Virus record (IMG/VR): IMGVR_UViG_3300027819_000009 | Location: 10,658 to 74,657 of that record | Origin: a virus | Lineage: Duplodnaviria; Caudoviricetes | Reading direction: 5' to 3' (one strand) | Length of the DNA: 64,000 nt | Shown here: piece after piece, positions 34,879 through 51,461 of the stretch | Layout of the letters: the number at the start of each line of letters is the position of its first letter | Position numbering within the stretch: the first letter of the stretch is position 1 | Program-made: the position numbers and the translations under genes | Notes under the pieces: generated by a model | Seen by the model: only the letters and a program-made list of their open reading frames with translations | Database searches by the model: none | What the model was told of the DNA's origin: nothing

Positions 34879-34971
34879 ATGAAAGAAAACGCGATTTTAG
34901 GCCTTGTTATTGTACTATCAATAGTAGTTGCATTACAGGCTAACAAACAACTTGATAAATTAACTGCTTAA
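34879..34971 (+). CDS. 30-aa single-TM peptide heading the structural operon
   Basis: Manual translation MKENAILGLVIVLSIVVALQANKQLDKLTA. Confidence 0.55.
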   Translation: MKENAILGLVIVLSIVVALQANKQLDKLTA

Positions 34972-35026
34972 TTGACTCTGTAGTCAACAGCAATTAATCA
35001 TCAATGATGAAAAACAAAAAAGAACA

Positions 35027-35716
35027 ATGAAAAAAAGAAACACGCCAGTAAACCCTCATAATGAGTGGTTCTCGGCAAATGGAGATCAAGATTGGAACAG
35101 TGCAGATGAGTGGAGAGGTGCTGATTCTAGTTGGGACGCAAATGGCGGAGATCGCCAAGCAGTGCAAACACACTCAAGCGCACCTTACATTTTACAAATT
35201 GTTAACGCATGTACAAGTGCAATAGCAGATGTAGATATTGGAGATGCAGCAAGAAACCGCACAAGCGCAACGTTCAACCTAAACTCGAACATCACAGTTA
35301 CATCAACTGTGCAGGGTATTAACTACCTTGAGTATTTGGCTATGTCAGAATCTCAACCGTTTTTAGTAGGTGCAACGATGATTATTTCAACAAGCGCCGG
35401 GCAACTGGATCAGACTGTTAAAATAACTCACCGTAATCCTTCTGGGGACGACTGGGGCCACGTAATTACGCCCACCCTCACTTTGAACCAAAACCAAACG
35501 GATCGTGTAATTGATGACTATGAGTATCTTATGACATCAATGACTCGTTTGAGATGGAACCAAATCAATGCATCTGCGACAGTAACTTGTCGTCAGTACT
35601 TGAAAGGCAAATTTGCAGCAAATCAAATTTTAGTTGGACGTCCTGCTTTGCAGGGTTACGGACAGCCGAATGTTGTGGCAAATGCTAAAGGTATCCAAAC
35701 GTTGATTCGCGGTTAA
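35027..35716 (+). CDS. Candidate major capsid protein (predicted beta-rich, single jelly-roll-like) with W-x-x-A-[ND] repeat leader
   Basis: First large gene of the structural operon, followed by its own terminator; alternating beta-strand pattern; codons skewed to AAC/ATC/CGT relative to its paralogue; fold is inferred. Confidence 0.6.
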   Translation: MKKRNTPVNPHNEWFSANGDQDWNSADEWRGADSSWDANGGDRQAVQTHSSAPYILQIVNACTSAIADVDIGDAARNRTSATFNLNSNITVTSTVQGINYLEYLAMSESQPFLVGATMIISTSAGQLDQTVKITHRNPSGDDWGHVITPTLTLNQNQTDRVIDDYEYLMTSMTRLRWNQINASATVTCRQYLKGKFAANQILVGRPALQGYGQPNVVANAKGIQTLIRG

Positions 35717-35741
35717 TTTAGTAGCGATTATTTAATTTAAA

Positions 35742-35775
35742 AGGGCAGGCATCTGTATGTTCTGCTCTTTTTTTT
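35742..35775 (+). terminator. Intrinsic terminator after the candidate major capsid gene
   Basis: AGGGCAGGCAT/ATGTTCTGCTCT stem followed by a long T tract. Confidence 0.75.
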
Positions 35776-35805
35776 AAACTAAACGATTTAATTCCATTTC
35801 GCCAG

Positions 35806-36420
35806 ATGAACAACACAGAATTTTTTAACAACGAGTCGTCCCAAAATAGGGATATTTGGCGTTATGCGAATGGTAGTAATATTTCAAAGGAAGATTTAAT
35901 TAAAGGGCCGGCGCCTTTTATTTTTCAGATTGTAAACGATCAGTCTGCTCCGGAGCCAGCGATAGCAGATGTGGATATTGGGGATGCTGCGAGAAACAGA
36001 ACAAGTGCAACGTTCAATTTAAATTCACACATTACAGTTACATCAGCGGTTCAGGGCATTAATTACAGAGAGTTTTTAGCCATATCAGAGAATAGTCCAT
36101 TCTTGGTAGGTGCAATTATGATTATTTCAACAAGTGCAGGTCAGCTTGACCAAACTGTTAAAATAACTCATAGAAACGCAAGCGGAGATGAGGTTGGACA
36201 CGTTATCTCGCCAACGATTACATTAAATCAAAGACAGACGGATAGAGTGGCGGATGATTATGAGTTTATGTTTGATTCTCTTACTAGAATTAGATTTAAC
36301 CAGATTAATGCCGGTGCAACTGTTACGATAAGGATTTATCCTAAAGAGATTTATTCTTCTGCGGATTTATTAGCGAGAAGAGGTGAAATTGAAAGATTTG
36401 GCAAACCAAGACTTTATTAA
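35806..36420 (+). CDS. Paralogue of the candidate capsid protein (second/minor capsid protein)
   Basis: About 100 of 123 core residues identical to 35027..35716 by hand count. Confidence 0.6.
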   Translation: MNNTEFFNNESSQNRDIWRYANGSNISKEDLIKGPAPFIFQIVNDQSAPEPAIADVDIGDAARNRTSATFNLNSHITVTSAVQGINYREFLAISENSPFLVGAIMIISTSAGQLDQTVKITHRNASGDEVGHVISPTITLNQRQTDRVADDYEFMFDSLTRIRFNQINAGATVTIRIYPKEIYSSADLLARRGEIERFGKPRLY

Positions 36421-36564
36421 ATGACAGATAAAGAAATTGAAATATCGGAAAAACAACATGCTGAAGTAATTCGGCAGATGAAAATAAGCAATATCACAAG
36501 TGGTATTATTGCCACAGCTTCTTTATTTACATTGATTACAATTTTTGTAAAACTTACAAAATGA
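36421..36564 (+). CDS. 47-aa protein with C-terminal TM
   Basis: Manual translation ...SGIIATASLFTLITIFVKLTK. Confidence 0.5.
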   Translation: MTDKEIEISEKQHAEVIRQMKISNITSGIIATASLFTLITIFVKLTK

Positions 36565-37034
36565 TTTATTTAAAACATAATCTACAGCAGAATATAGCGA
36601 GTGCGAATAGCACGAAGGATCCTGCTATGCGTGAGGATATTGTTTTATCTGAGATAGGCAAGCGGATTGCTGTTCGGCCGGAGGTTGTTATTGGGTTTTT
36701 AAAAAAATCAGATATTAATGTTTCTGATACGGCATCTACTGGCAAGATGGTTAGTCTTGTTTCAAAGAACATTGGTAAAAACAAAAACCTAATTGTTTTA
36801 TTTGCTAAAGATATTGGGGCGGGAGAAGGCTCGGAGTTAATGGCGAAGTCTATTTATGAGGTTTTTAAAAAGCCAGGAGCGGAGAGTGAATTAATGAAAT
36901 ACACTAAGGCGATTAAGGGAATAGCTCTTAGCGCTGATGGCGGGGACGATATTAAATGGGGGGCGAGGGTTGCTGTTGGGATTGTTGTTGTTTTAGGGAT
37001 AGGATTTGCAGTTTATAAATATAAGAATGGGTAA
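36561..37034 (+). CDS. Putative virion membrane protein, C-terminal TM
   Basis: LSADGG motif then VAVGIVVVLGIGFAVYKYK. Confidence 0.65.
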   Translation: MIYLKHNLQQNIASANSTKDPAMREDIVLSEIGKRIAVRPEVVIGFLKKSDINVSDTASTGKMVSLVSKNIGKNKNLIVLFAKDIGAGEGSELMAKSIYEVFKKPGAESELMKYTKAIKGIALSADGGDDIKWGARVAVGIVVVLGIGFAVYKYKNG

Positions 37035-37278
37035 GAGTTTGGATGATAAAAAATTAGAGGAGGCTGTGCAGGCGATGTATAGCGGGAGCCTTGGGGCGAA
37101 GATTAAGAAAAACTCGTCGTATGTGATTACGGGGATGTTTATAGGGGGGGTTGCTGGGCTAATGATTGCAAGTTTTATGGGTAAGAGTAAATTGTGGGGT
37201 GCGGTGATTGGGGCGGGAGTTTCGGGAATTGGAGGATATATAGTTTCGAATAATACTAAAAATAAAGAAGATGAGTAA
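37027..37278 (+). CDS. Two-TM glycine-zipper membrane protein
   Basis: GMFIGGVAGLMIA and GAVIGAGVSGIGG. Confidence 0.65.
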   Translation: MGKSLDDKKLEEAVQAMYSGSLGAKIKKNSSYVITGMFIGGVAGLMIASFMGKSKLWGAVIGAGVSGIGGYIVSNNTKNKEDE

Positions 37279-37621
37279 CACAGCAGAAGAAGTAATGGAA
37301 AAGGCTGGAACTAATCAGCACACCGGATCGTATGGTAATACGAAAGGCAAATCTGCTAATTCTCTTTATAAGAGTTATAAAACGTTCGTTACAGATAGGG
37401 GACAGAAACCGCTAGATTTTACTCCTTGGTTAAAATGGGCAAAGGCTAAAGGTATTGTTCCGGCTAATGTAAGTGAGAAAGAAGAGTTTAAGGCTGATGC
37501 GGAAAACAATAATACTAATGTTACTACAGATTCTATTCCTACTTGGAAAATTGCGGTTGGAGTTGTGTTGGTGGTTGGCATAGGAGTGGCTATTTATATG
37601 AATTATAAAAAACCTTCATAA
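37271..37621 (+). CDS. Putative virion membrane protein, C-terminal TM
   Basis: FKADAE motif then IAVGVVLVVGIGVAIY. Confidence 0.65.
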   Translation: MSNTAEEVMEKAGTNQHTGSYGNTKGKSANSLYKSYKTFVTDRGQKPLDFTPWLKWAKAKGIVPANVSEKEEFKADAENNNTNVTTDSIPTWKIAVGVVLVVGIGVAIYMNYKKPS

Positions 37622-37625
37622 AAAA

Positions 37626-38411
37626 ATGAAATTCGGAGTTGCGAGAAAATACGGAGACCAGCAGATTATAATTCCTGTTCGCACAAGGAGCAAGGAGAGG
37701 ATTGTTGTTAGGATATCGCATCCAACTAAACCTAATACGGTTTATTTCGATATTGCTCCAATTATAAACGGGGAAGATGTTATTGTGGCGAAGATACCAA
37801 AGATGCCGGAAACGGTAATAATGGAGGTTTATAACGAGGCTAATGGGCATACAGATAAGGATGGCTCGTTCCAAATTAAAGAACCGAGGATAATGCCTAT
37901 TATTCAGGGCTTTGCAGTTAAGCGATTGATGGATCCGAATGTTAATCGGTTTGCTATGTTCTTGGATGATTTTGCGGAGAATGCGGCGATTATTTCGGCA
38001 CAGAATAGTATTTATAGGAGTCCGGACGGAAAATTTGAGATTCATTATAAGGATGTTATTCGGGATGATAAAGGAAATGAATTAAGGACGCCATTGCGTG
38101 TGAATAGTAAAAGCAAGATAATGGAGATTGCAAAAAAATACTACATTACCTATACTGTTCCTGGGCGTAAGATGTGGGCTTGGCATGAGTTTGCTCATGT
38201 TTGGATAAACAATAATCCGGCAGATGAACTTGAGGCTGATAAGCATGCTATAAAAATTTACTTGGGTTATGGAAATCCAATCGCAGAGGCTTATAATGTG
38301 GTGTTGAAGGTTTTTAAGAATACGCCGTCGGATTTAAATAAGCAGAGATACTTGGCACTAAACGATTATATAAAGAATTTTAACAAAGAAATGACTAAAA
38401 ACTTATCATAA
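37626..38411 (+). CDS. Zinc metallopeptidase (HExxH...ExxAD), candidate maturation protease
   Basis: WHEFAHVWINNNPADELEADKHA; the only soluble enzyme-like gene among the membrane genes. Confidence 0.75.
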   Translation: MKFGVARKYGDQQIIIPVRTRSKERIVVRISHPTKPNTVYFDIAPIINGEDVIVAKIPKMPETVIMEVYNEANGHTDKDGSFQIKEPRIMPIIQGFAVKRLMDPNVNRFAMFLDDFAENAAIISAQNSIYRSPDGKFEIHYKDVIRDDKGNELRTPLRVNSKSKIMEIAKKYYITYTVPGRKMWAWHEFAHVWINNNPADELEADKHAIKIYLGYGNPIAEAYNVVLKVFKNTPSDLNKQRYLALNDYIKNFNKEMTKNLS

Positions 38412-38421
38412 ACTAAAAAAC

Positions 38422-38751
38422 ATGAATAAAGTAGCAATTGGAGCATCATTATTACTAGCATTTGGTATAGGGTATGCCATAGCGAGTAGAAACAAAATCC
38501 CAGAAGGGATAGTTGTTGATTACATTAATAAGAAAAACAGAACGTTTGATGTGTTCGTTAACTATGGCGGACAGGTTTCTTATGCTGATGAGGCGAAATG
38601 GGATCAGATTCACATCCTAACGCCGATTAATGATAACGGAAAGTATTCTTTTGGTATTGATTATGAAGGAAACAAAACGTATATAACAATTAAAGAAAGA
38701 TTAACTGGAAAAGTTATTCAAGAAAAAGTTATTGATTGGGATAAAGTTTAA
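38422..38751 (+). CDS. N-terminal TM protein
   Basis: VAIGASLLLAFGIGYAIA then a beta-rich domain. Confidence 0.6.
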   Translation: MNKVAIGASLLLAFGIGYAIASRNKIPEGIVVDYINKKNRTFDVFVNYGGQVSYADEAKWDQIHILTPINDNGKYSFGIDYEGNKTYITIKERLTGKVIQEKVIDWDKV

Positions 38752-38762
38752 AAACTAATATT

Positions 38763-39254
38763 ATGGAAAAAGGAGCGAAAATAGCATTAGTGGTTGGTGG
38801 GATTGTTGTTGCCATATGTGCAGCAATAGGAATATACTATGCCACAAGGCCTAAAGATACAACATCTGGAAATACCGGTGGTGGTTCTGGTGATGGAAGC
38901 GGAAGTGGCGGAACTGGACTGAATTTAAACATAGACCAGATAAAAGATGTTCTTGGCCAATTTGCTCAAGCGACAAAAGAGAAGTTTCCCTTCCGGATTG
39001 GTATGTACGGGCCGAATATAAAAGCTATGCAGACGGCGTTAAAGAATAAGTTCGGGCAGGATTTGAAAACTGATGGTATTTTTGGAGTTAAAACATTTAA
39101 TGCTTTGAAAAAGACTGGTTATGCTACTCTTTTGGAGAATACTATAAATGACGAGAAGTTTTTAGATATCATTGATGGTAAAAAGATAACAGGCTTTTCG
39201 GCGAATGGCGCGAAGAATGTATTAATGCCATCTGGTAATTATATGCCGATTTAA
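38763..39254 (+). CDS. Membrane-anchored peptidoglycan-binding protein
   Basis: N-terminal TM, G/S linker, GMYGPNIKAMQTAL...DGIFGVKTFNAL (PG_binding_1 pattern). Confidence 0.8.
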   Translation: MEKGAKIALVVGGIVVAICAAIGIYYATRPKDTTSGNTGGGSGDGSGSGGTGLNLNIDQIKDVLGQFAQATKEKFPFRIGMYGPNIKAMQTALKNKFGQDLKTDGIFGVKTFNALKKTGYATLLENTINDEKFLDIIDGKKITGFSANGAKNVLMPSGNYMPI

Positions 39255-39266
39255 AAATAAGAAATT

Positions 39267-39713
39267 ATGACAAAAGGACAAGTTGTATTATTAACAGGAG
39301 GGGCATTGGCTACAATAGCTATTGTTTACTTCGGCTTCATTAAGGAAGATGCCGCAGGGCTTACTTGGCTTGAGAGACTTAAGTTAGGTAATGAGGGTGA
39401 TGCGATTGGTGGCGGAAGTGAAACTCAAAAAGAAAACTTTGAAAAACTGCTTGTTAATACTGGATTAAAACCAACAGGAAAGGATTCTGGCGGTAAAGAT
39501 GTTTTAACGATTAAATTTAACGGGGATAAAAACGTGGCAGATTTTTATACTAATAGTAGGGTTTGGATTTATATGCTTTCTCCTACGGGGGCGAAGTCTA
39601 CTCCTCGCAAGGCAACTTATAGCGATGGGGGTAAAACTTTTTTAATGGATAAGGACGGAAGTCAAATAACAAAAAGCAGTGTTTTTGCAACTTTACTAGA
39701 GGCGATAAAATAA
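39267..39713 (+). CDS. N-terminal TM protein
   Basis: VVLLTGGALATIAIVYFGF. Confidence 0.6.
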   Translation: MTKGQVVLLTGGALATIAIVYFGFIKEDAAGLTWLERLKLGNEGDAIGGGSETQKENFEKLLVNTGLKPTGKDSGGKDVLTIKFNGDKNVADFYTNSRVWIYMLSPTGAKSTPRKATYSDGGKTFLMDKDGSQITKSSVFATLLEAIK

Positions 39714-39714
39714 A

Positions 39715-40215
39715 ATGGCAGATTTAGTTATACCATATAATTCACAACCTGACTATGATGAATGGGGGTCGGACACGTTTTGGCCTTTAGCGACATGGGT
39801 TGCTTGGCATAGGGGACTAGTGAAAAAATACGGCAGGTCTTTAAATCCTGGCGGATATCCTTTTGCGGATGCTATTTGGTTGAATGCGTGGAGTAAGCAG
39901 AGTTACGGAGCGAGTCCTTTACTAGCAATTGGTCAGCCGAGTAGATTTAAAGAGGAGACGGATTATTTAAAGAAGTTTCCTTTGCTGTACGAATACACAG
40001 GATTAAAAAAGCATGAAACAGGAATAAATCCTATTGATGCTACATATAAGCTGATTCAGAAATCAGCGACGGCTTTGCAGGATTTGGGAGAGGGAGTTAC
40101 GGATACGATTTCCGGAGTTGGATCTGGACTTAGCGTTTTAAAGTATGCGATTCCTGTTGTTCTTGTGATTGTAATAGGAACGGGTTTATACATTGGTTAC
40201 AAAAAATTAGCGTAA
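39715..40215 (+). CDS. C-terminal TM protein
   Basis: YAIPVVLVIVIGTGLYIGY. Confidence 0.6.
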   Translation: MADLVIPYNSQPDYDEWGSDTFWPLATWVAWHRGLVKKYGRSLNPGGYPFADAIWLNAWSKQSYGASPLLAIGQPSRFKEETDYLKKFPLLYEYTGLKKHETGINPIDATYKLIQKSATALQDLGEGVTDTISGVGSGLSVLKYAIPVVLVIVIGTGLYIGYKKLA

Positions 40216-40955
40216 TGGCAGACATTAAATATATAATTCCTTTTACTTATAAGTGGGAGGGCGGTTTAAGTAGAGCAACAACAGACTCGGCTTCGAAAAA
40301 CCCTGCCAATATAAGTCCATACACTATTAATGGTCAAACTGGCTGGCATACAAATAAGGGAATTACTTATTCGGTATTTAAAGCCGGAGCATCTAAGTAT
40401 GGGTATCAAGATACTTTAAATAATTGGAAAGATATGCCACACGATATTTGGTTAAAAATAACTAAGAGTGGGTATTGGGATAGATTAAAACTTGACACCT
40501 ATAATAGCCAGCCCGTAGCAAATGTAATGTTTTCATGGGTTTGGGGATCTGGATTAGCATGGCAACCAAGAATGGAGAGATATTTAAAAACGAAAGGTAT
40601 TAATTGGGCTCGTAATAATTTTGGAGACTTGGCTACAAATTTAAATGGCCTAGTTACAAAAGATGGGGAGAAAAAAATATTTGATGAGTTGGTTGAGCAG
40701 AAAAAACAGTTTTTACTATCCTTAAAGGGAACAGACTCTAATCCAGTAACTGATGCAAAGCCTCAAGGGGTTTATACAGATGGGTGGATGAATAGACTTA
40801 GGGATTTACAGACGTATAGTTATACTCTGCTTAGTAAAACGATTACGGATATAGGCGAGGGTTTAAAGAACAACAGTGGAAAGATAATAGTGTTTTTTTT
40901 TGCTTTCTCGATTATAGCGGGGGGAATAGTTTTATATAATAATGCGAAAAGTTAA
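40215..40955 (+). CDS. GH108-family lysozyme with C-terminal TM anchor
   Basis: WEGGLS...TNKGIT catalytic motif, GWMNRL C-terminal motif, IIVFFFAFSIIAGGIVLY anchor. Confidence 0.8.
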   Translation: MADIKYIIPFTYKWEGGLSRATTDSASKNPANISPYTINGQTGWHTNKGITYSVFKAGASKYGYQDTLNNWKDMPHDIWLKITKSGYWDRLKLDTYNSQPVANVMFSWVWGSGLAWQPRMERYLKTKGINWARNNFGDLATNLNGLVTKDGEKKIFDELVEQKKQFLLSLKGTDSNPVTDAKPQGVYTDGWMNRLRDLQTYSYTLLSKTITDIGEGLKNNSGKIIVFFFAFSIIAGGIVLYNNAKS

Positions 40956-40960
40956 ATAAA

Positions 40961-41698
40961 ATGGCAGAATCAAATAATAACAGACAGTACTTTAACAGCG
41001 AGGCTTCGAAAAATCGGGATACTTGGAAGTATGCTGATGCCGGTACTGAGCGAACTCTAAGGATTGGTAATGTAAGGACAAACCTATATGCCACAGGAAA
41101 GTTTGATGATGTGCTACGTGCTGAAAAATGGCATAATGCAGATAGCGAGTCGGAAAACGAAGATTCAGTTGAGTATGAAAACGAACTTCCCGAAGAGGAA
41201 TTTACAGAGGAGGAACTTCCGAAATTTCGTCATTTAGTTCGTGCAAAGAAATTAGAATATAAGGCGCAATACGGAAAGGCTCATTTACAAACAAAAACGG
41301 CTTATAAGAAAGTTTGTTTAGGCGGATGGGTAGATATTAAGGGAGACGGTAAGGGGCCTATATGGAAATCGGATATTAATTGCACGAATATTCCTTATCC
41401 ACAAATCACATGGGTTTGGGGATGGAGAAAAAAGTGGAGAGAGTTTAAACAGGCTGGTGGATTAGCACAGTTAAAAATGCAATCTAAAGGAACGGCACCA
41501 ATACCAGGATACGTGCCTGATGCTAATGCGGGAAATGGAAGTGGAACTGGGACTGGCACAGGAACAGGAAACAAGCCACCAAAACCAGATATTACGCTTG
41601 ATTTACCTGAAAAACAAGAGGCATCAATGGTTACTAATGTAGTTGGTGGCATTTTAGTTGTTGGGCTTTTAATTGGAATATTTAAAACTTTAAAATAG
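40961..41698 (+). CDS. Putative virion membrane protein with capsid-like leader, C-terminal TM
   Basis: YFNSEASKNRDTWKYADAG leader; GT repeat linker; C-terminal TM. Confidence 0.6.
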   Translation: MAESNNNRQYFNSEASKNRDTWKYADAGTERTLRIGNVRTNLYATGKFDDVLRAEKWHNADSESENEDSVEYENELPEEEFTEEELPKFRHLVRAKKLEYKAQYGKAHLQTKTAYKKVCLGGWVDIKGDGKGPIWKSDINCTNIPYPQITWVWGWRKKWREFKQAGGLAQLKMQSKGTAPIPGYVPDANAGNGSGTGTGTGTGNKPPKPDITLDLPEKQEASMVTNVVGGILVVGLLIGIFKTLK

Positions 41699-41704
41699 AA
41701 AAAA

Positions 41705-42271
41705 ATGGTAAACAAATTCAGTATATTAAAATTTGATGATGCCGTAGTGGCATCGTATCATTCGGCAGATGGGCCAGTCCCAGAGGAATTTAATTTATCA
41801 AAATACAATGGCGTGTTAGGTCAAGGATACACAGACTCTAATCTTGTGTTTTTAATTGATAATACTTACTTGCCAGAAGTAAACGGGTTAATACAACAGT
41901 ATAAAGAGAAGAAGATGGTATTGGGCTCTAGTCCACAAAATAGCTTTTTAAAACAACAATATGCTGATTATATAGCAACTATGTCGCAGGTTAAGAGTGA
42001 GTTGACTATTATAAGAAATGCTGCAAAAGGTAGGATTCAATATGCTGTTGATCACCCACAGTCTGTTATTGGAGAGGGGACAGATCTTGGGCAGGTAAAT
42101 CTTAATTTTGGTAGCCCCAAAACAGATGGTGGTAAGGGAAGGAATGTTGGCGAGACGGTTAATGTTGATTTAAATTTACCAAAAACACAAAAAGCATCGC
42201 TTACAGGGAATATAATCGGAACAGTCCTTATTTTAGGATTAGTTTTCGGAGCAATAAAATTTATGAAATAA
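41705..42271 (+). CDS. Putative virion membrane protein, C-terminal TM
   Basis: YHSADGP; LNLPKTQKASLTGNIIG resembles LDLPEKQEASMVTNVVG of the upstream gene. Confidence 0.6.
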   Translation: MVNKFSILKFDDAVVASYHSADGPVPEEFNLSKYNGVLGQGYTDSNLVFLIDNTYLPEVNGLIQQYKEKKMVLGSSPQNSFLKQQYADYIATMSQVKSELTIIRNAAKGRIQYAVDHPQSVIGEGTDLGQVNLNFGSPKTDGGKGRNVGETVNVDLNLPKTQKASLTGNIIGTVLILGLVFGAIKFMK

Positions 42272-42278
42272 AAACATT

Positions 42279-42683
42279 ATGCCAGGAACATTAGAAAATC
42301 CATCAGGAAACACAGGAAGGGGATCTGCTCCAACATCTGAACAGTATGCTCAGTGGGCGCAACAGTCTGCTGCTCTTGCGGCTCAAATCGCAGAGGCTAA
42401 AAATAAGAGAGATGCTTTAATGGCTCAGACGGGATGTAAAAAGCCGTTAATAATGGCTGGTAAAAAGAAAAAAGCGTATTTGGCATGTTTGGAGAATTAC
42501 AAAGCAAAAGTTGAGGCAGCAAAACAAGCGGATAGAGATTTGGTTCGTATGCAACTGGAAATGAGAAGGCTTGATGCTCTGCAAAATAAAGGCTTAAGTA
42601 CCGGCGCATGGATAGCGATATCGGTTGGTGCAGCATTGTTAATTACCGGAGTTGTGGTATTGGTAGTAAAATTAAAAAAATAA
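42279..42683 (+). CDS. Coiled-coil protein, C-terminal TM
   Basis: AWIAISVGAALLITGVVVLVV. Confidence 0.6.
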   Translation: MPGTLENPSGNTGRGSAPTSEQYAQWAQQSAALAAQIAEAKNKRDALMAQTGCKKPLIMAGKKKKAYLACLENYKAKVEAAKQADRDLVRMQLEMRRLDALQNKGLSTGAWIAISVGAALLITGVVVLVVKLKK

Positions 42684-42687
42684 AATT

Positions 42688-43869: not shown

Positions 43870-44234
43870 ACATCAATAAATAAAGGTAATTATATATTTA
43901 TTGATACAAAAAAATGAGAAAGCTAATTAGAAATATAAAATATGGGTTAGATTTCCGTAAAACAGCTAATAACTTGCGGAAAATAATCGAAGCCACTTTT
44001 ATTACAGAATTTAAAATTACTAATCCTAAAATAAAGGTTAATTTTCGGTTTGGGTACGCACAATATTTTTATAGACCATCTGTGTGGTTTGGAACAAGGC
44101 AAATTGGTATTATAAGGGAAGATTACCAAGATTCTGGGTGGGTTTCTTCATTTTATACAATAAAACAGTATTTAGAACTGAAGAAAAAATTAGTATCAAC
44201 AAATATATAGTTACCTAAATAAAAAACAAATAAT

Positions 44235-44585
44235 ATGGAAAAAGGAATGAAAATAGGGTTAGGGATTGGTGGAGCCGCCCTTGCTATCGCTGTAATTTAC
44301 TTTGGTTTTACAGAAAAGGGTAAACAACAATGGTCTGTAATGTTTGACCCAACAAAAGGAGGTACAAATGTTCCGCCAAGAACAGGAACAGCCGAAGATG
44401 GGGGCAAGAGCAGAGATGTTGGTGCGGATGGGTTAAATACACGCATAAGAAAAGGATCAGGTTCTGTCGGTTCTGGAAAGTGGATTATTAAAGGTGATAT
44501 GATAGGAAAATCATGTCCGTCTGGTCAATATCCAATATATCTAGAGGGAGAGAAAAAATGGGTTTGTGCCATATCTGATAGATAA
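44235..44585 (+). CDS. N-terminal TM protein with C-terminal cysteine pair
   Basis: IGLGIGGAALAIAVIYFGF; CPSGQY...WVC. Confidence 0.55.
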   Translation: MEKGMKIGLGIGGAALAIAVIYFGFTEKGKQQWSVMFDPTKGGTNVPPRTGTAEDGGKSRDVGADGLNTRIRKGSGSVGSGKWIIKGDMIGKSCPSGQYPIYLEGEKKWVCAISDR

Positions 44586-44649
44586 TTTATAATCTTTTAT
44601 AATAAAGTTGTATTTTTGAGGCTTTAAACCTATTAATACAATCTCTATC

Positions 44650-45381
44650 ATGGCGGAAGTAAAAAACAATGTCTTTGCTGATAAACTAGCGGGGCTTAAA
44701 TTAGATTATGAAGATTATGGGCGTTTACCGATGCGAATGGATGTCCAAGCTCTTGTTGCACCAGATGGTAAAAACACAGCAGATGTTGTTTCGCAATTTG
44801 ATAAACTTCAGTACATAAGAGAGCATTTAAAAAAGATTGATGATTACATTAAGGCAAAAACGAATGTTCCTATTAATGAGTGGAGTGCAAAGAATAACAA
44901 AAATCTAAGCACTAAAGTTCTTTCAAAGCTAAAAGGTCATACTAACGAAACTGGAGGTATTTCAAAATACTTTCATGATTTACAAACTATTTATGACTCC
45001 GAAGAGGCTCTTTATGATAAAATGGAGGCCGACTGCAAATCGGACGAGGCATCAAATAAGATGTTTTACGGAATGCGGGCGGATAGGGATGAGAAGAGAA
45101 AAACAAGATCCGCAGAGAGAAAACTTTTAGTAAAGGATTTAAAGAAAGACGGGAAGGGATTCTTGTTTGTTGAAGTTGAGGAAGCGCCGGTTGCGAAAGA
45201 GGAAGTGAAAAAAGAAGAGAAGGAAAATGAACATGCTGCCGATGGGGATTCGAAGGAGAAAATTGAAAAGGAAGTTGATAAGATACAAAAGACCACAAAG
45301 AACGTGGGGATTTACATTGCCGGCTTTACAATACTGCTTACTGCGGTTATAGTTGTAGCCTCGGCAACAAAAGAAAAATAA
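44650..45381 (+). CDS. Charged protein with C-terminal TM
   Basis: HAADGD motif; IYIAGFTILLTAVIVVA; TATTTTTG promoter-like element at 44611-44618. Confidence 0.6.
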   Translation: MAEVKNNVFADKLAGLKLDYEDYGRLPMRMDVQALVAPDGKNTADVVSQFDKLQYIREHLKKIDDYIKAKTNVPINEWSAKNNKNLSTKVLSKLKGHTNETGGISKYFHDLQTIYDSEEALYDKMEADCKSDEASNKMFYGMRADRDEKRKTRSAERKLLVKDLKKDGKGFLFVEVEEAPVAKEEVKKEEKENEHAADGDSKEKIEKEVDKIQKTTKNVGIYIAGFTILLTAVIVVASATKEK

Positions 45382-45382
45382 A

Positions 45383-45922
45383 ATGAGCAGAGTTTGGAGA
45401 AATATAGCGGCTGTAGGTGTGGCAATAGTAGTGCCACTTGGCTTCTATGCATACTTTTCAGTTAAACTTCTAACTCAAATCGCTGTTAGTGTTTTTAGTA
45501 TAAAAATTAAAAGTGTAGGGGCGGGATTTATTGATTTAGTGCTTACTCTTCGAGTTGAGAATCCCGCAAATGTAGGGGTTTCTATTGAGGGGTATGATAT
45601 GAAAATAAAGATTAACGGGGCAGATGTGGCTGATATAAAAAACACAACTAGTAAAAAACTCGAATCGAAGGCCGTATCTTACCTTGATATTCCGATTACA
45701 ATAAAATATCCAGAGTTTGCTAGTAAGGTAAAATTTAATGAAATACTTCAGTACTTATTACTGAGTAAATTTGAGAAAATTTCGTTAACTTTGGATGGCG
45801 CCATTTTAGGATCCGTTGCTAAAGTTCCGGTTGCTACAAGTATAAAGGCTACTCTTACAATGCGGGACATAATGGATAAGAAGGATCCGAAATTTGATAT
45901 TGGTAAAATAAAGTTTTTTTAA
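45383..45922 (+). CDS. LEA_2 (LEA14/WHy)-like membrane-anchored protein
   Basis: N-terminal TM; LTLRVENPANVGVSIEGYDMKIKING. Confidence 0.75.
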   Translation: MSRVWRNIAAVGVAIVVPLGFYAYFSVKLLTQIAVSVFSIKIKSVGAGFIDLVLTLRVENPANVGVSIEGYDMKIKINGADVADIKNTTSKKLESKAVSYLDIPITIKYPEFASKVKFNEILQYLLLSKFEKISLTLDGAILGSVAKVPVATSIKATLTMRDIMDKKDPKFDIGKIKFF

Positions 45923-46341
45923 TTATGGGATTTATAGACAACAAAGTAAAAAAGACATTTGAAAAGATTTTTAAAGGCGTTGCAAAAGAAATCAACTGCG
46001 ATGTATCTGAGGTAAAAATTGGAATCGTTTATAAAGACGGTCAGATTGTTTACGAGGCTTATAGGGGGAATGAAAAAGAAAAGGACATTAAACTATCTGA
46101 CTATTTAAATATGTTTGACTCTGCTCCACATGTAATTGAGGCAACAATAGGACAAGCGAGCGGAAGATATGCCTCAGAGGTTGCTACAAAGTTAAACAAG
46201 GAAGTGCATCCGAATGATGTAAGTATAATTTTTAAAGATGTCCCAGGAGAAATTCCACGTGCTGTTTTAATGGCATTCGGACAAAAACAAAGAGAAATTG
46301 ATGTAAAAACAGAATTTTCACAAAGTTAAAAAAATAAAAAG

Positions 46342-46704
46342 ATGCCGAGTCAGATACCTATTATATTTTTCAACAGGGAGGTTACCAACACCCTTGTTTT
46401 AGTTGCTTCAGGAAGGGTTACTCTTGTTGGATGGTTGCTATCGAATCATAGCACTGCCGCTTATTTAAAACTTTATAATGCAGCAGCAATAACAGATGTT
46501 GCGCTGGCATCAACTGTTCCTAATAAAATTCTACCAATACCAACAGGGCCTGGAGGATTATTTTTTCTTAGTAATGAGGATAAGTTTCAACAGAATTTTA
46601 ATTTAGGTTTGGTTATAGCTGTTGTTTCTACACTAACCGAATCTGCAACGGCACCGGCACAAGCATGTAGCGTGGAGTTGTCTTACGATAATATTAGTCA
46701 ATAG
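46342..46704 (+). CDS. Small beta-rich structural protein (vertex/spike-base candidate)
   Basis: AYLKLYNAAA...GLVIAV beta pattern; lies directly before the spike-like genes. Confidence 0.4.
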   Translation: MPSQIPIIFFNREVTNTLVLVASGRVTLVGWLLSNHSTAAYLKLYNAAAITDVALASTVPNKILPIPTGPGGLFFLSNEDKFQQNFNLGLVIAVVSTLTESATAPAQACSVELSYDNISQ

Positions 46705-46710
46705 AAAGAT

Positions 46711-47997
46711 ATGGGATCATTCGCAACTAGCAACCCCACAGGGGGATCAGATATAACAGGAAGCGGAACGGCCAATCAAGTTGCTGTTTTTGCATCGGCA
46801 TCATCTATAGGAAATCCTACTATTTCATTTACGTCTAGTGCAACTGGCTTTACTATAGGCTCGCTTACGGCAGAGCCGGCTGGAATACTTACACTTACAT
46901 CTATTACACAGGGGTTTATTCCTCCAAGACTTACGTCAGCACAAAGAAATGCAATGCCGGCGGTTCTAGTTGGGATGTCTATATTTAACACAACAAGAGA
47001 TACAATTGATATTTATACAGAAGGTGGCGGGGTTCCAGCTTGGGCATCACTGATTACATCTACGATGTATCCAACGGCGTTTACTGTTGGTGCGCTTTTA
47101 ATGGCCAATACAACAACCACTATCACCACATTATCTGCTGGGGCGGGAGTCGGTTCGTATTTAAGGTCGGCTGGAGCGGCAACAGAGTTGGTGTGGAGCG
47201 TTTTAACACTTCCTAACGCCGCTACCGTAGGAGATATTTTTTACTCAGATACGACTAATGTAATGGGTAGGCTTGCCTCTGGGGCAACGGCTGGAATGTT
47301 TTTAAGAAACGTAGGGGCATCAACGGCTCCGGTATGGAGTACGCTTATACTTCCGAATGCTGCAACAGCTAATCAAATAGTTTATGCTTCAGCCACCAAC
47401 ACATACGGAGGCACAACAACGTTTTTATTTAACGGCACATCGTTTTTAGTAGGTACAGCGACTCAAATAGGCGCAGGAAATATTTGTGACTTTTTTAGAA
47501 ATCAGAATGGCGCAACGTCTGTGTGGACTACTAATAATACATCGGGAACTGCCGCTTTTGCTATGAATGCAGTAACGGCGGATAATGGGACAACCAATAC
47601 AAGTATGCGCTCATTAAGCGCAGGTTATACTACGTCAGGAATGCTTGTGGCTAGTACTGGTGTTGTATTAACAACCTGTACTGCCGGAATGAACCTTGGT
47701 ACTTTTTCTAACACACAATTGTCTTTTTGGACAAATAATACACAACAATGGAGCATAACATCCGGCGGCATATTAACGGCTGTGGATGCTAAAGATATAG
47801 CGTTTGGAACCACAACAGGAACAAAAATAGGCACAGCGACATCGCAAAAATTAGCTTTTTATAACGCCACGCCTATTGTTCAGGGGGCAAGCATAGCGGA
47901 TGCTTCTGGTGGGGCAATTATAGATGCCGAGGCAAGGACGGCTATAAACGCTCTTATATCAAGAATCGAGGCAACTGGACTTATAGCAACGGTTTAA
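46711..47997 (+). CDS. Fibre/spike-like protein with internal repeats
   Basis: T/G/A-rich; GFIPPRLTSAQR; two repeats LR..GA....VWS.L.LPNAAT; KLAFYNATPIVQ. Confidence 0.65.
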   Translation: MGSFATSNPTGGSDITGSGTANQVAVFASASSIGNPTISFTSSATGFTIGSLTAEPAGILTLTSITQGFIPPRLTSAQRNAMPAVLVGMSIFNTTRDTIDIYTEGGGVPAWASLITSTMYPTAFTVGALLMANTTTTITTLSAGAGVGSYLRSAGAATELVWSVLTLPNAATVGDIFYSDTTNVMGRLASGATAGMFLRNVGASTAPVWSTLILPNAATANQIVYASATNTYGGTTTFLFNGTSFLVGTATQIGAGNICDFFRNQNGATSVWTTNNTSGTAAFAMNAVTADNGTTNTSMRSLSAGYTTSGMLVASTGVVLTTCTAGMNLGTFSNTQLSFWTNNTQQWSITSGGILTAVDAKDIAFGTTTGTKIGTATSQKLAFYNATPIVQGASIADASGGAIIDAEARTAINALISRIEATGLIATV

Positions 47998-48023
47998 AAA
48001 TAATAAAATGTGCAAAACTAATT

Positions 48024-49232
48024 ATGGCAATAGGATTTATAAGATCTACACCCGTTAATATTCCATTGCCTATTGGTAATCTAATTAATGATTCATTTTC
48101 TGGCGCAGCATTAAGCTCCAACTGGACAGCAACAAATCCAAATACTACAATTACAGTTAGTGGGGGGGATTTGCTTTTAAATAGGTCGGTTGGAGGCGGA
48201 TATCAGCTTAATAGCGATTACTTATTATACACTGGATATGGTGGGACTTGTCTTGAGGATTGGACAATTACAGTTCCTTTTAAAATAACAGAAACAAGCG
48301 CAACGAGTACCGGCTTTGCTATTGGTGTTAAGTCGACTGCAAATTGGTATTCTAACTATTGGTATCTAGTTCAGTTTAACACAAATAGTGGCGCTGGAAA
48401 TAAAAAGCTGTATTTTTATATGGCTGGCGCAACAACCGCCACTACAATATCCTCAACGGCACTAACGGCAGCACTAAATGATGAGTGTACTCTTACTGTT
48501 ACTAGGTCGGCAGATACCACAAATGGACAAAAAATAACAGCTACAGTTACAAATTTAACTAATCCCAACAGCGTAAGCCACTCCTATACATTTACAGAGG
48601 CGTATCAGATTACTGTCGGATCGCCACCCACATGCTACTTCGCTATTTTCCCATTCGTTGGGCAAATAACGCTTCACTCCTTTACAGTTAGCACAGCTTA
48701 TTATAAAAACTGCAATATAATTACAAGGGGAGATAGTATAACTAGGGGTGTTTATGCTTTATCCTACACGAACAGATGGACTACTTTATTCTTTGGAAGC
48801 TCTCTTAAAAAAAACTATTCGTGTGGTGGCCCAGGAGACAGAACAACATCTGTACTGGACAATATACCGGAATTGCTTTTATTTAAGCCTAAGTTTGTTG
48901 TTTTAATGATTGGAGGGAACGACCTAGCTGGCGGCGTGGCAATAGGCACAGTGCAGACCAATTACCAAAGTATAGTAACTCAGCTTATAGCCGGCGGTAT
49001 CACAGTGTGGCATTGTATGACTCCGCCGAGAAATGGTTATGATTATACAACGTGGAACAGCTGGTTAAGCTCAACTTATTTAAATGTAGTCAACACATTT
49101 ACTAATTTAAAAGCTGCTGTTGGAACTGGATTAAATGCCGCATACAATAGCGGAGATGGAACACATGAAAACACAGCTGGCCACGCATTAATAGCATCCG
49201 ACTGCACATCATCTATAGGAAGTTTAGTATAA
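48024..49232 (+). CDS. Beta-domain plus SGNH/GDSL hydrolase (candidate receptor-modifying spike)
   Basis: GDSIT (block I), GPGDRT (II), IGGND (III), DGTHEN (V). Confidence 0.85.
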   Translation: MAIGFIRSTPVNIPLPIGNLINDSFSGAALSSNWTATNPNTTITVSGGDLLLNRSVGGGYQLNSDYLLYTGYGGTCLEDWTITVPFKITETSATSTGFAIGVKSTANWYSNYWYLVQFNTNSGAGNKKLYFYMAGATTATTISSTALTAALNDECTLTVTRSADTTNGQKITATVTNLTNPNSVSHSYTFTEAYQITVGSPPTCYFAIFPFVGQITLHSFTVSTAYYKNCNIITRGDSITRGVYALSYTNRWTTLFFGSSLKKNYSCGGPGDRTTSVLDNIPELLLFKPKFVVLMIGGNDLAGGVAIGTVQTNYQSIVTQLIAGGITVWHCMTPPRNGYDYTTWNSWLSSTYLNVVNTFTNLKAAVGTGLNAAYNSGDGTHENTAGHALIASDCTSSIGSLV

Positions 49233-49244
49233 AATAAATAAATT

Positions 49245-49655
49245 ATGAGAAGAACTCGGCAAGGATTTGATACAGCGTTAAGAAACTCGACAAGGGGAGA
49301 TGTTGAGGATTTAGCAGATAGTTTTTATAACTTACTCTCTGATGGGGCGGTTCAGCCACTTACAGACGGAGCAACTATATCTTGGGACACAGAATCTGGC
49401 ATGAATGCCTCAGTGACATTAACTGGAAACAGAGTATTATCAATACTAAACCCATTAGCTGGTTGTTTTTATACAATACGAGTTTCGCAAGATTCAACCG
49501 GATCAAGAACACTCTCGCTCCCATCGCCAAGCAAGGTTGTTAATGGTGGGGCTGGGGCAGTAACCCTTACCCCAACAGCCAATGCAATAGATATACTAAC
49601 CGCATATTATGATGGGACTACGTATTATTGGACTTATGTATTAAACTTTACTTAA
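49245..49655 (+). CDS. Phage fibre-associated beta-sandwich protein
   Basis: VTLTGNRVL...IRVSQDSTGSRTL...NAIDILTAYYDG motif common in fibre proteins. Confidence 0.6.
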   Translation: MRRTRQGFDTALRNSTRGDVEDLADSFYNLLSDGAVQPLTDGATISWDTESGMNASVTLTGNRVLSILNPLAGCFYTIRVSQDSTGSRTLSLPSPSKVVNGGAGAVTLTPTANAIDILTAYYDGTTYYWTYVLNFT

Positions 49656-49692
49656 AAAATTATTTATATATTTGTATAAATAGATTGAATCT

Positions 49693-50160
49693 ATGAAAAA
49701 GAAAATTACCTATAAAAAACTTCAAGAATTTGATAAAATGGCAACAAACTACCTAGTTAAAAACGGGTACTTTACTCCAGCTGTTTTTAAAGATGGCCAC
49801 CCTGTATCTGCCGGCGAATTTACAAACAAAGAGCAGACGAAACTTGTGGCTAATATGAAAAACATAGTTAAGCAAGGGAAAAAAGCATTCGAGGAGTTTA
49901 CAGAATTACAAAACAATATATACATCGATAATTGTGCTGTAGATGAAAAAACGAAGGTTATGATTTTAGATGCGAAAGGCGGATACCAGTTTACTCCTGA
50001 AAAACAAAAAGAGGTAAATAAAAAAATCAAAGAGCTTGTTATTTCTGAAATTGAAATACACGCAAGAATTACAGAAGGAGAGTGGGGATTAACGGACGAG
50101 GAGAAAGAGGCATTTAACGGAATAATTATACCGGAATTTAAAACAGAAGAAACTGAATAG
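49693..50160 (+). CDS. Hypothetical protein (possible fibre chaperone)
   Basis: Helical and acidic; own TATATTTG element upstream. Confidence 0.45.
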   Translation: MKKKITYKKLQEFDKMATNYLVKNGYFTPAVFKDGHPVSAGEFTNKEQTKLVANMKNIVKQGKKAFEEFTELQNNIYIDNCAVDEKTKVMILDAKGGYQFTPEKQKEVNKKIKELVISEIEIHARITEGEWGLTDEEKEAFNGIIIPEFKTEETE

Positions 50161-50167
50161 AACTCTT

Positions 50168-50392
50168 ATGGATATACACACACACGATGCCGACTTTAGT
50201 GTAAGTACAAACAATAAACTTACAATACTATTTCTTTTATTCAGCGGATTGTTTCATTGGATGCAGACGCTAAGTGCTGATGTAATTTATATTTGGTTTT
50301 TTAGAACCCTTACGGTTATCTCTGTTATGTTAGTTATCGTGCTAAATTTAATTAAACTTATAGAGTGGTATAAATCAAAAAAAACAAAATAG
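50168..50392 (+). CDS. Holin-like two-TM protein
   Basis: Two hydrophobic segments and a basic C-terminus (WYKSKKTK). Confidence 0.55.
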   Translation: MDIHTHDADFSVSTNNKLTILFLLFSGLFHWMQTLSADVIYIWFFRTLTVISVMLVIVLNLIKLIEWYKSKKTK

Positions 50393-50393
50393 A

Positions 50394-50627
50394 ATGAAAA
50401 AGTATAAAGTTCATTTTTCAATTTTCAACATCTTCTCCGATAGCCAATCGGAGGTTGTGAAATTACAAACTGTTTTTAAATCTATATCTGCAGCCGTTGT
50501 TGGGACTGTTTGGTATGAGTCAAACTCTACTAATGCCCTTTATTTTGCAATTGGAGGATGTGTTGTAGATGCTATTCTGGCGTGTTTCTATTTCGAGCAT
50601 ATAAATAAGGACGAGTTAAAGCCATAA
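50394..50627 (+). CDS. Holin-like small membrane protein
   Basis: Two moderately hydrophobic segments; lies next to spanin-like genes. Confidence 0.4.
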   Translation: MKKYKVHFSIFNIFSDSQSEVVKLQTVFKSISAAVVGTVWYESNSTNALYFAIGGCVVDAILACFYFEHINKDELKP

Positions 50628-50779
50628 AACATGAAATCAATGAAATTTTTATTTGTATTTATAGGACTTGGATTTATTTGTTATGGAATAAATAGGTGCG
50701 ATAAAGAAAATCAAGATTGTGTTTCTGTAAAAACAGAAACTTCCATTGTGGATTCATTAAAAACAGACTCACTGAAATA

Positions 50780-51112
50780 ATGCGGAAGGAAGTTTTAAAA
50801 TACACACTAATTATTGTTGGTGTTTTTATATTAGTTCGGCTGTATGACTTTGTAACCAAAAAGCCGGCGCCGATTGAAAGAACGGTAGATCCCAGAATTT
50901 TAAGGCTAGATTCTGAAATTACAGTCCTTAAAAAAGAAATGGAGCTATCAGCCAAAGAAAGGGCAGTTAGGGACTCAAACATTAACTCTCGTTTTGATAG
51001 TATAAGAACGGATCGCCAAAAAGCAAATAATGAAAAAAAGAAGTTATATAAAATTCCAGATTCGGAGCTTATTCGTATCCGTGATTCTATTCGGAAAGTT
51101 AACGGCTTATAG
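50780..51112 (+). CDS. Inner-membrane spanin-like protein
   Basis: N-terminal TM then coiled coil; start moved to MRKEVLK; overlaps the next ORF in another frame. Confidence 0.5.
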   Translation: MRKEVLKYTLIIVGVFILVRLYDFVTKKPAPIERTVDPRILRLDSEITVLKKEMELSAKERAVRDSNINSRFDSIRTDRQKANNEKKKLYKIPDSELIRIRDSIRKVNGL

Positions 51113-51461
51113 CCAGGCTGGTGAGGTAATTTGCCTTACCCCCAATGAATACCGGTTCTATGCAGGAGCAGTTATTGATAGGCAAGCGATGGCTAAAGAT
51201 ACCACTCGGTTAAAAGAGGCTATATTTGACTTAAAAACCAATAATGCGTCCCTAGAGTCGGACTTGGCGAAATCTCGCGACGTAGAGGCTAAAATGGGCG
51301 AAAAAGAGGCTATTTACGTACATAAGATAGATACACTTTCGGATGCTGTGGATAAGTATAAAATAAAAACTGTCCGGAATAGGCGGATGGCTATTGTTGG
51401 TGGAGGAGTTTCGGTTTTAGAAACAGTGCTTATTGTTTTGGGACTTATTTTAATTTTTTAG
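51030..51461 (+). CDS. Spanin-partner-like coiled-coil protein
   Basis: Signal peptide ending AYS-Q, coiled coil, hydrophobic C-terminus; 83-nt overlap with the upstream ORF. Confidence 0.45.
   Translation: MKKRSYIKFQIRSLFVSVILFGKLTAYSQAGEVICLTPNEYRFYAGAVIDRQAMAKDTTRLKEAIFDLKTNNASLESDLAKSRDVEAKMGEKEAIYVHKIDTLSDAVDKYKIKTVRNRRMAIVGGGVSVLETVLIVLGLILIF

Follow-up and report, generated by a model that had tools for sequence, protein, structure and literature searches.

A candidate morphogenesis module of a tailless, membrane-containing virus in an uncultured viral genome

The stretch of DNA analysed here (the window; 64,000 nucleotides) comprises bases 10658-74657 of one 74,657-bp record, the IMG/VR entry IMGVR_UViG_3300027819_000009. 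A plus-strand gene block at 34879-51461 of the window raises the question of what kind of virus particle it builds. It opens with the genes of two similar small proteins, continues with a long run of proteins with membrane segments, and is followed to its end by genes resembling those of spikes. A first-pass annotation, made from the letters alone, saw in it the architecture of the tailless, membrane-containing viruses such as PRD1, PM2 and the sphaerolipoviruses, at an unfamiliar size. The present analysis points the same way: with a probability of roughly 0.7, the block is the predicted morphogenesis module of an uncultured bacterial double-stranded DNA virus of about 74.55 kb, with a tailless icosahedral particle and an internal membrane.

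The first and last 104 bases of the record are identical, and IMG/VR classes it as having direct terminal repeats. Because the ends share this sequence, the genome is treated as complete, with a length of about 74.55 kb, and as circular or terminally redundant. The annotated size of more than 64 kb stands, and so does the annotated set of DnaB, RecT and integrase genes, as DnaB, RecT and two tyrosine recombinases were all detected by Pfam and PHROG. The 10.6 kb beyond the window contain small open reading frames (ORFs) and one tyrosine recombinase of 394 amino acids (aa), and nothing else. Homing endonucleases, DNA methylases, RecT, DnaB, tRNA and transfer-messenger RNA (tmRNA) were counted as evidence that the element is a virus.

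The jelly-roll proteins

The operon starts with the following genes.

35027-35716, plus strand: single jelly-roll protein 1, candidate major capsid protein; 229 aa, N-terminus disordered, Trp/Asp-rich
35806-36420, plus strand: single jelly-roll protein 2, faster-evolving paralogue; 204 aa

The two products, described in the first-pass annotation as beta-rich paralogues, are indeed 60% identical (BLASTP, E-value 3e-83). An AlphaFold2 model of the 229-aa protein, built with a 34-sequence alignment (predicted local distance difference test score, pLDDT, 70.8), has disordered residues 1-45 and a beta sandwich of at least eight strands at residues 46-205. Foldseek with this model produced no match below E 1e-3. 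When the model was aligned with 48,161 PDB representatives by VIA-align, all leading matches were jelly rolls, with Z scores of 5.2-7.2. The viral proteins among them are those of grapevine fanleaf virus, the penton protein P31 of PR772 and PRD1, and proteins of cowpea mosaic virus (CPMV), satellite panicum mosaic virus (SPMV) and satellite tobacco mosaic virus (STMV). They also include the turret protein of Sulfolobus turreted icosahedral virus (STIV), phiCjT23, FLiP capsid and penton proteins, SPV1 and PRD1 P5. The structure prediction suggested by the annotation for this gene has thus returned a jelly roll, and on the model the 35027 product is a member of the eight-stranded jelly-roll fold class.

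The family of the 229-aa protein comprises 63 homologue clusters in the 90% database of a 5.8-billion-protein set, all metagenomic and without a family name. An exhaustive search with the paralogue retrieved 232 clusters among 50%-identity representatives, all of them unnamed metagenome proteins. In the maximum-likelihood tree of the 63 homologues the two copies of this genome are sisters (P0001 and P0045, support 100/98), the second on a long branch, and the jelly-roll pair of a second genome likewise clusters together. This grouping of within-genome pairs rules out two ancient capsid clades contributing one copy each per genome.

Several members of the family depart from the simple domain. 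A hidden Markov model (HMM) scan found insertions of 100-280 aa inside the barrel in P0070, P0072 and P0197, and two or three tandem jelly-roll copies per ORF in P0068, P0193, P0214 and P0127. In one related contig (L002, 10793-12190) the second gene encodes a rearranged 465-aa protein, the match of its first part being confined to the C-terminal two thirds of the domain.

Two points were counted in favour of a shell role, namely the position of the jelly-roll genes at the head of the operon, which suits an abundant product, and the diversity of the metagenomic family. One possibility, which we consider unlikely, is that the virus is of the proposed kind and the jelly-roll pair forms a vertex, spike or decoration, the true capsid or the particle shape (pleomorphic or enveloped) having escaped recognition. 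Indeed, the Z scores of capsid proteins are equalled by those of penton and vertex proteins (PRD1 P31 and P5, the FLiP penton), of tail-needle knobs and of lectins, the fast evolution of the second copy and its rearrangement in relatives are often seen in receptor-binding proteins, and a 261-aa protein encoded further downstream is better conserved than the jelly-roll proteins. On the other hand, no other soluble ORF of the module suits a capsid, as the 261-aa protein has a metal site and the 428-aa and 402-aa products are fibre-like and esterase-bearing, respectively. A double jelly-roll capsid is not indicated either, since HMMs of PRD1 P3 and of capsid proteins of nucleocytoplasmic large DNA viruses (NCLDV) had no match in the whole record, and the genes here are separate, encoding about 200 aa each. 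Finally, a packaging motor of the B204/A32 type implies a preformed icosahedral procapsid. We thus return to the jelly-roll pair as the candidate shell proteins, and to the motor itself.

The packaging ATPase and the divergent operon

The candidate motor is encoded on the other side of the capsid genes, in a minus-strand block with the following features.

10815-11657, minus strand: predicted genome-packaging ATPase of the FtsK-HerA superfamily, B204/A32-like, 280 aa, assigned by motifs and fold
11668-12387, minus strand: candidate packaging-vertex membrane partner, 239 aa, with two N-terminal transmembrane (TM) helices (residues 6-24 and 41-59)
12690-34803, minus strand: glycan-synthesis island, in the same block as the ATPase, assigned by Pfam and PHROG
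34804-35026, no strand: intergenic region from which the glycan/ATPase and capsid operons diverge, by the ORF map and a sign change of the GC skew

The ATPase has a Walker A motif, GAQEIGKS, at residue 12 and a Walker B-like motif, LIED, at residues 114-117; K18, E116 and D117 are invariant in 25 homologues. It is modelled by AlphaFold2 with a pLDDT of 90.6 and a predicted TM-score (pTM) of 0.86. In the Foldseek search of the PDB the top 11 of the rows listed are all the B204 NTPase of STIV or STIV2 (E 7.5e-7, TM-score by target 0.63). The next family is RecA, starting at 5.7e-5, so that the E-value of B204 is about 75-fold better. VIA-align superposes the model on STIV2 B204 (4kfr_A) with Z 17.3 and a root-mean-square deviation of 2.8 A over 187 of the 204 residues (92%), followed by HerA (16.1), the DndH C-domain (16.1), VirB4 (15.0), TrwB (12.8) and FtsK (11.1). 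The best matches in BFVD are the A32-like ATPases of medusavirus, a Corticoviridae NTPase, haloarchaeal PH1, virophages and adenovirus IVa2. Thus the A32/P9-like ATPase of the first-pass annotation is retained as a predicted FtsK-HerA superfamily protein, structurally closest to the packaging motors of membrane-containing icosahedral viruses.

The resemblance to B204 extends to the fold, the Walker A and B motifs and the single small domain. However, the two proteins have 14% identity, and the ATPase here exceeds B204 by about 60 aa and has an additional helical region at its C-terminal end (residues 223-273). The sequence itself yields a single family match, to Zot, which is sub-threshold, and a few of the homologues carry PF01935 (HerA) or Zot; searches of the PDB with the single sequence and with a profile gave no significant match. 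The protein is kept in the relatives L002 and L006 with 37-48% identity. Walker A motifs occur in only three ORFs of the genome, those of the ATPase, DnaB and a glycosyltransferase, the last a chance match. Since the ATPase is the only non-replicative P-loop protein, it is the sole candidate packaging motor. The neighbouring 239-aa protein with two TM helices has no Pfam or PHROG family.

A less probable alternative still is that the element is no virus, and that this ATPase serves DNA transfer or defence in a circular plasmid-like or other mobile element with a surface-glycan pathway and a membrane complex. The similarity of the ATPase to HerA, DndH, VirB4 and TrwB (Z 12.8-16.1), the large glycan cluster, the recombinases, the many membrane proteins and the failure of a pattern-based search of IMG/VR viral contigs to find a relative all fit such an element. 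However, no scan detected a relaxase, a VirB4-sized ATPase, a coupling protein or a pilin family, and the ATPase, at 280 aa, is a minimal single domain of the B204 kind. The element is phage-like in its jelly-roll family, its lysozyme, its fibre and esterase genes, its homing endonucleases and its RecT/DnaB module, and IMG/VR lists the record as a virus with terminal repeats. The viral reading is therefore kept in what follows.

The minus-strand block runs from 34803 to 8236 and contains the glycan genes, a tRNA-Gly gene, the two-TM protein, the ATPase and two DNA methylases. The glycan island encodes a GDP-mannose 4,6-dehydratase, an epimerase, glycosyltransferases of the families GT2, GT6 and GT11, a C-methyltransferase, FkbM-type and other methyltransferases, and a Fic protein. 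The position of these genes, with the capsid genes on one side and the motor on the other, points to glycosylation of virion components by the virus itself; the target could instead be the host surface. A scan of the module for consensus promoters and terminators gave counts no higher than in shuffled sequences.

Some further genes lie within the island. Three of them, at 15304-16185, 22132-23136 and 33038-33907 (all minus strand), are homing-endonuclease-like, with NUMOD3 and HNH or endonuclease VII-like domains. The Fic/DOC domain (1.9e-14) belongs to the ORF at 27437-28216 (minus strand). A second tRNA was found by Rfam at 18524-18632 (minus strand; 46.7 bits, full model, 109 nt), between two genes of the island; it was not reported by ARAGORN, and its extra length suggests an intron or insertion.

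Membrane proteins, spikes and the search for tail genes

Downstream of the jelly-roll genes the plus-strand operon contains the following.

36421-37621, plus strand: four small TM proteins by the TM scan, one with a glycine zipper (Gly-zipper_Omp 1.4e-5 at 37006-37278)
37626-38411, plus strand: 261-aa protein with a zincin-like motif of invariant residues, candidate maturation or cell-wall metallopeptidase
38422-40215, plus strand: four TM-anchored proteins, one of them (38763-39254) a weak candidate for peptidoglycan binding, by TM scan and Pfam/PHROG
40215-40955, plus strand: GH108 lysozyme (Pfam GH108 3.9e-10, PHROG endolysin 4.8e-12) with a C-terminal TM segment (residues 222-240)
40961-45922, plus strand: tail- or N-anchored membrane proteins by the TM scan, among them a 393-aa protein with several TM segments and one with a LEA_2 domain
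45925-46704, plus strand: two small soluble proteins, 134 and 120 aa, conserved in L002, the 120-aa one beta-rich
46711-49655, plus strand: candidate vertex spike or receptor-binding genes, fibre-like (428 aa), esterase (402 aa) and tip-like (136 aa)
49693-51461, plus strand: small proteins, four with TM segments by the TM scan; putative lysis cassette

TM segments were predicted by the Kyte-Doolittle scale with a 19-aa window and a threshold of 1.6. At least one is present in 20 of the 31 plus-strand ORFs of the module, compared with 11 of the 121 ORFs elsewhere in the genome. The count of about 17 anchored proteins behind the paralogues, given by the annotation, is exact for 36421-45922, where 17 of the 19 ORFs carry a TM segment, mostly a single C-terminal or N-terminal anchor. 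Several proteins of the run at 40961-45922 are kept in L002 and L006, and the LEA_2 domain (1.1e-7) lies at 45383-45922. In some relatives (L010, 16977-17306, and a 42.9-kb Logan contig) the structural operon also contains a SET-domain protein of about 100-110 aa; its position corresponds to 43914-44210 of the window, where a 98-aa ORF has no Pfam match.

The membrane-anchored lysozyme predicted by the annotation was found as the GH108 protein with its C-terminal TM segment, a candidate virion-membrane muramidase for entry, or an endolysin. The peptidoglycan-binding protein that was predicted beside it is a weak case: the ORF at 38763-39254 matches PG_binding_3 at 1.2e-4, under the curated cut-off, and has weak matches to endolysin PHROGs.

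The 261-aa protein is the best conserved of the module, with 53-58% identity in relatives. Its family has 79 clusters of 206-303 aa, except for one 160-aa fragment, on contigs of up to 75.8 kb. Residues H187, E188, H191, E201 and D205 are invariant in 30 sequences (HExxH...E), and by this pattern the protein carries a zincin-type metal site. It had no Pfam or PHROG match, and nothing significant was found in the PDB with the sequence or with a profile. A short motif, [SNYGAH]-A-[DN]-G, has 11 copies among the 5,353 residues of the module at 35027-45381 and four among the 17,857 residues elsewhere; it often lies within the N-terminal parts of the jelly-roll proteins or immediately ahead of C-terminal TM anchors. 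As the operon also encodes the HExxH protein, the motif may mark a site of processing or interaction.

At the distal end, the beta-rich 120-aa protein (46342-46704) is a candidate penton base, to judge from its sequence. Relatives have a 120-121-aa ORF at the same position, followed in L010 by a fibre-like protein; hhalign of the 120-aa protein with the capsid profile gave nothing. The spike-like genes noticed by the annotation were found in the next three ORFs. The first, at 46711-47997, encodes a Thr/Ser/Gly/Ala-rich protein of 428 aa without a family and with nothing significant in a PDB search by sequence. The second, at 48024-49232, encodes 402 aa with a C-terminal GDSL/SGNH esterase (Lipase_GDSL_2 5.7e-16), and the third, at 49245-49655, encodes 136 aa with a weak match to a tail-fibre tip. 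The matches to PHROG tail proteins arise from the esterase region and the tip. The L010 counterpart of these candidate spike genes carries PF26696 PTL_trimer. The small proteins at 49693-51461 have no Pfam or PHROG families.

Genes of tailed-phage head and tail assembly were not seen by the annotation in the window, and were not found here in the complete element. The HMMs Terminase_6N, TerL_ATPase, Terminase_3, Phage_portal, SPP1_portal and HK97 Phage_capsid had no match with an E-value of 1 or less in a six-frame search of the whole record, including the 10.6 kb outside the window, yet the same six did match control genomes. Of the two outcomes by which the annotation would have been refuted, neither came about: the 35027 product is modelled as a jelly roll, and the rest of the element yielded no terminase, portal or HK97 module. 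Pfam and PHROG scans of about 80 ORFs gave no head, tail or packaging family except for the matches of the lysozyme, the esterase and the fibre-tip domain. The largest ORF (557 aa) is Lys/Glu-rich, without a Walker A motif or a family, and half of a 349-aa ORF conserved near the ATPase is of low complexity; in the ESM Atlas, whose models are of low confidence here, neither has a usable family.

A tailed phage with terminase, portal, HK97 and tail genes diverged past recognition might be suggested by the likeness of the DnaB, RecT, integrase and methylase genes to those of tailed phages, by larger ORFs of 557, 361, 349 and 316 aa without a family and by the weak tail-fibre matches of the spike genes, and is the least credible of the alternatives in view of the negative HMM searches, the lack of any ORF above 557 aa and hence of one of tape-measure or portal-plus-terminase size, the missing Walker A motif of the 557-aa product, the low complexity of half the 349-aa one and the B204-like ATPase as the only non-replicative P-loop protein.

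The favoured reading, a tailless virus with an internal membrane, suggests the following scheme. The two operons diverge at about 34.9 kb, and the region would be transcribed late in both directions from there. Rightward, the two small single jelly-roll proteins would make the shell, and the approximately 20 single-pass membrane proteins would fill an internal lipid vesicle. The membrane-anchored GH108 muramidase would open the cell wall at entry, like PRD1 P7, and the protein with the invariant HExxH...E residues may process virion proteins. At the vertex, after a small penton-like protein, would come the fibre and the SGNH-esterase spikes, whose task would be to bind a surface glycan receptor and modify it. 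Leftward, the 21-kb glycan operon ends in the B204/A32-type ATPase, which would pump the genome into preformed, membrane-lined procapsids via a unique vertex.

Known viruses, relatives and host

Three viral families, Sphaerolipoviridae, Simuloviridae and Matsushitaviridae, form the Helvetiavirae, since 2025 the realm Singelaviria (PMC12714852). They are described as having two small single jelly-roll capsid proteins, an FtsK-HerA/A32-type ATPase, an internal membrane and many small TM proteins, as well as a virion-associated lysozyme and vertex spikes (PMC12643093, PMC12642351). This architecture is shared by the present genome as read from its genes, which is a likeness of plan and not a demonstration of membership. 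The Helvetiavirae infect haloarchaea and Thermus, and their genomes of 16-31 kb are smaller than the 74.5 kb here by a factor of 2.4-4.6.

The annotation placed the characterised prokaryotic viruses of this architecture at about 10-35 kb, a ceiling that does not hold, as the genome of SSIP-1 has 43.8 kb. SSIP-1 is a tailless internal-membrane phage with circular double-stranded DNA, reported to have two capsid protein types (PMC6356626), and its structural proteins, at about 210-240 aa, are of much the same length as the ones considered here. It is the largest such bacterial virus that was found described, and the present genome is 1.7 times larger. SSIP-1 differs in having no annotated glycan island and in its hypersaline habitat, compared with groundwater here. 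No similarity between the two was detected by tblastn of the GenBank phage set, which contains SSIP-1, or by hhalign of gp44-46, which as single-sequence templates gave probabilities below 1%.

The viruses with B204/A32-type ATPases (Turriviridae, PRD1, vaccinia) have double jelly-roll capsid proteins, unlike the genome described here. The internal membrane of PRD1 and PM2 is full of small virus-coded TM proteins, and packaging proceeds at a special vertex by a P9-type ATPase. A membrane-associated muramidase is used at entry (P7 in PRD1), and the vertices carry a small jelly-roll penton and a spike. The membrane-anchored muramidase and the penton-plus-spike arrangement predicted here run parallel to this. 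On the other hand, PRD1 and PM2 have both jelly rolls in one chain, genomes of 10-15 kb and protein-primed or rolling-circle replication, whereas the present genome has a DnaB/RecT module. The glycan island has its parallel in chloroviruses and mimiviruses, which encode a comparable set of sugar-nucleotide enzymes and glycosyltransferases (GDP-mannose dehydratase, epimerase, GT11, methyltransferases) and also have a jelly-roll-based capsid and an internal membrane. However, these are giant viruses of eukaryotes, with double jelly rolls.

Several observations weigh against the proposed virus, or against parts of it. Non-viral jelly rolls (AlgX and other carbohydrate-binding modules, nucleoplasmin, TNF/C1q) score as high as the viral ones; the match is generic, with Z below 8, so the capsid role has to be argued from context. 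The capsid profile aligned with P23-77 VP16 and VP17 and SSIP-1 gp44-46 at hhalign probabilities below 1% (with single-sequence templates for SSIP-1), and the VP16 and VP17 chains are not among the top 50 fold matches, results with which a relationship to the VP16 and VP17 families would still be compatible. Since within-genome pairs cluster in the tree, the 60% identical paralogues are, by sequence, either a lineage-specific duplication or homogenised by gene conversion, unlike the old, divergent capsid pair of the sphaerolipoviruses and other Helvetiavirae. The recent duplication and the rearranged 465-aa form in a relative leave a two-protein capsomer not established. HerA and the DndH C-domain score only about one Z unit under B204. 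The ATPase gene is 23 kb from the capsid genes, on the opposite strand, whereas in the known families, including the Helvetiavirae, the ATPase and both capsid genes form one tight block and are adjacent in P23-77. The reference-based completeness given by CheckV is 66%, against which the terminal repeat argues for a complete genome. Finally, all the support for the virus comes from sequence and predicted structure.

Relatives were found on contigs of about 15-76 kb.

42.9-kb Logan contig
43.1-kb ENA contig, labelled as circular
15.8-kb ENA contig, same sample
22.8-kb contig, binned as Woesebacteria
46.9-kb contig, binned as Planctomycetota
75.8-kb NCBI metagenome contig

Every relative examined has a glycosyltransferase cluster on one side and the capsid/membrane operon on the other. 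The operon contains, in this order, the capsid gene or genes, TM proteins, the 261-aa protein, GH108, LEA_2, the protein of about 120 aa and the fibre. In relatives the ATPase lies 7-8 kb from the capsid genes, on the opposite strand, and the glycosyltransferase cluster is kept between the two. In L007 the glycan cluster leads straight into the ATPase and a Dam methylase, as in this genome.

The annotation did not recognise this combination of genes from described families, and the database searches agree: in tblastn, the capsid candidate, the ATPase and the 261-aa protein had no match among 50,697 GenBank phage records. No relative was confirmed by a pattern-based capsid search of IMG/VR viral contigs, and the same kind of search in GTDB genomes led to two contigs of metagenome-assembled genomes (MAGs) only. 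Literature searches, with scant reach into subscription journals, found no description of the lineage. Some relatives sit as hypothetical proteins in MAGs of the candidate phyla radiation (CPR), Planctomycetota and Nanoarchaeota, so the lineage is overlooked or mis-binned. Most likely the lineage is undescribed; the tailless jelly-roll membrane architecture itself is already known.

A more far-reaching proposal, which we regard as doubtful, is that these contigs represent a new high-rank lineage of bacterial internal-membrane viruses with a 21-kb self-glycosylation machinery, placed inside the morphogenesis region and acting on the capsid or membrane, and a capsid family that preserves single, duplicated, insertion-bearing and tandem-fused jelly rolls. 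Were it true, the island would be a prokaryotic counterpart of the self-glycosylation of chloroviruses and mimiviruses, and the step from single to double jelly-roll capsids would become directly testable. The fused and unfused forms bear on the debate behind the 2025 split of the single and double jelly-roll realms by the ICTV. Tailless membrane-containing phages are thought to be abundant and have few isolates; the families checked (Sphaerolipoviridae, Simuloviridae, P23-77) have 16-31 kb and SSIP-1 has 43.8 kb. If complete genomes of 43-76 kb, built on small jelly-roll proteins and an A32-type motor, are those of a lineage widespread in groundwater, this would raise the size ceiling of the architecture, and would show that it can carry replication genes in the style of tailed phages, a tRNA, a tmRNA and a large glycan pathway. 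The DNA of the element was found in groundwater metagenomes of several studies, two of these metagenomes possibly being the source sample; a search of sequencing runs listed no RNA dataset as containing it.

The host signal is mixed. A Shine-Dalgarno-like core precedes 15 of 110 genes, with 8.4 expected by chance, and the leaders are A-rich. One recombinase has a Phage_int_SAM_5 domain, which is common in elements of Bacteroidota. A Bacteroidota host fits the few Shine-Dalgarno sites and this domain, which are compatible with it and no proof. In tblastn, the nearest phage relatives of DnaB have the hosts Streptococcus, Riemerella, Listeria and Cellulophaga, those of the integrase have Bacillus and Gordonia, the tmRNA belongs to the permuted type, and relatives were binned with CPR, Planctomycetota and Nanoarchaeota MAGs. 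A possible temperate lifestyle is suggested by the two XerC/D-like tyrosine recombinases and by nothing else.

Two further features of the genome were observed. The 104-bp terminal overlap (L001 1-120; window 63897-64000) and the adjacent bases are far GC-richer than the genome, which has 36% GC. Rfam (RF04321, 53.7 bits) and ARAGORN both detect a permuted, two-piece tmRNA at 54761-55031 of the window (plus strand), with a tag peptide terminating in ...MKIAA.

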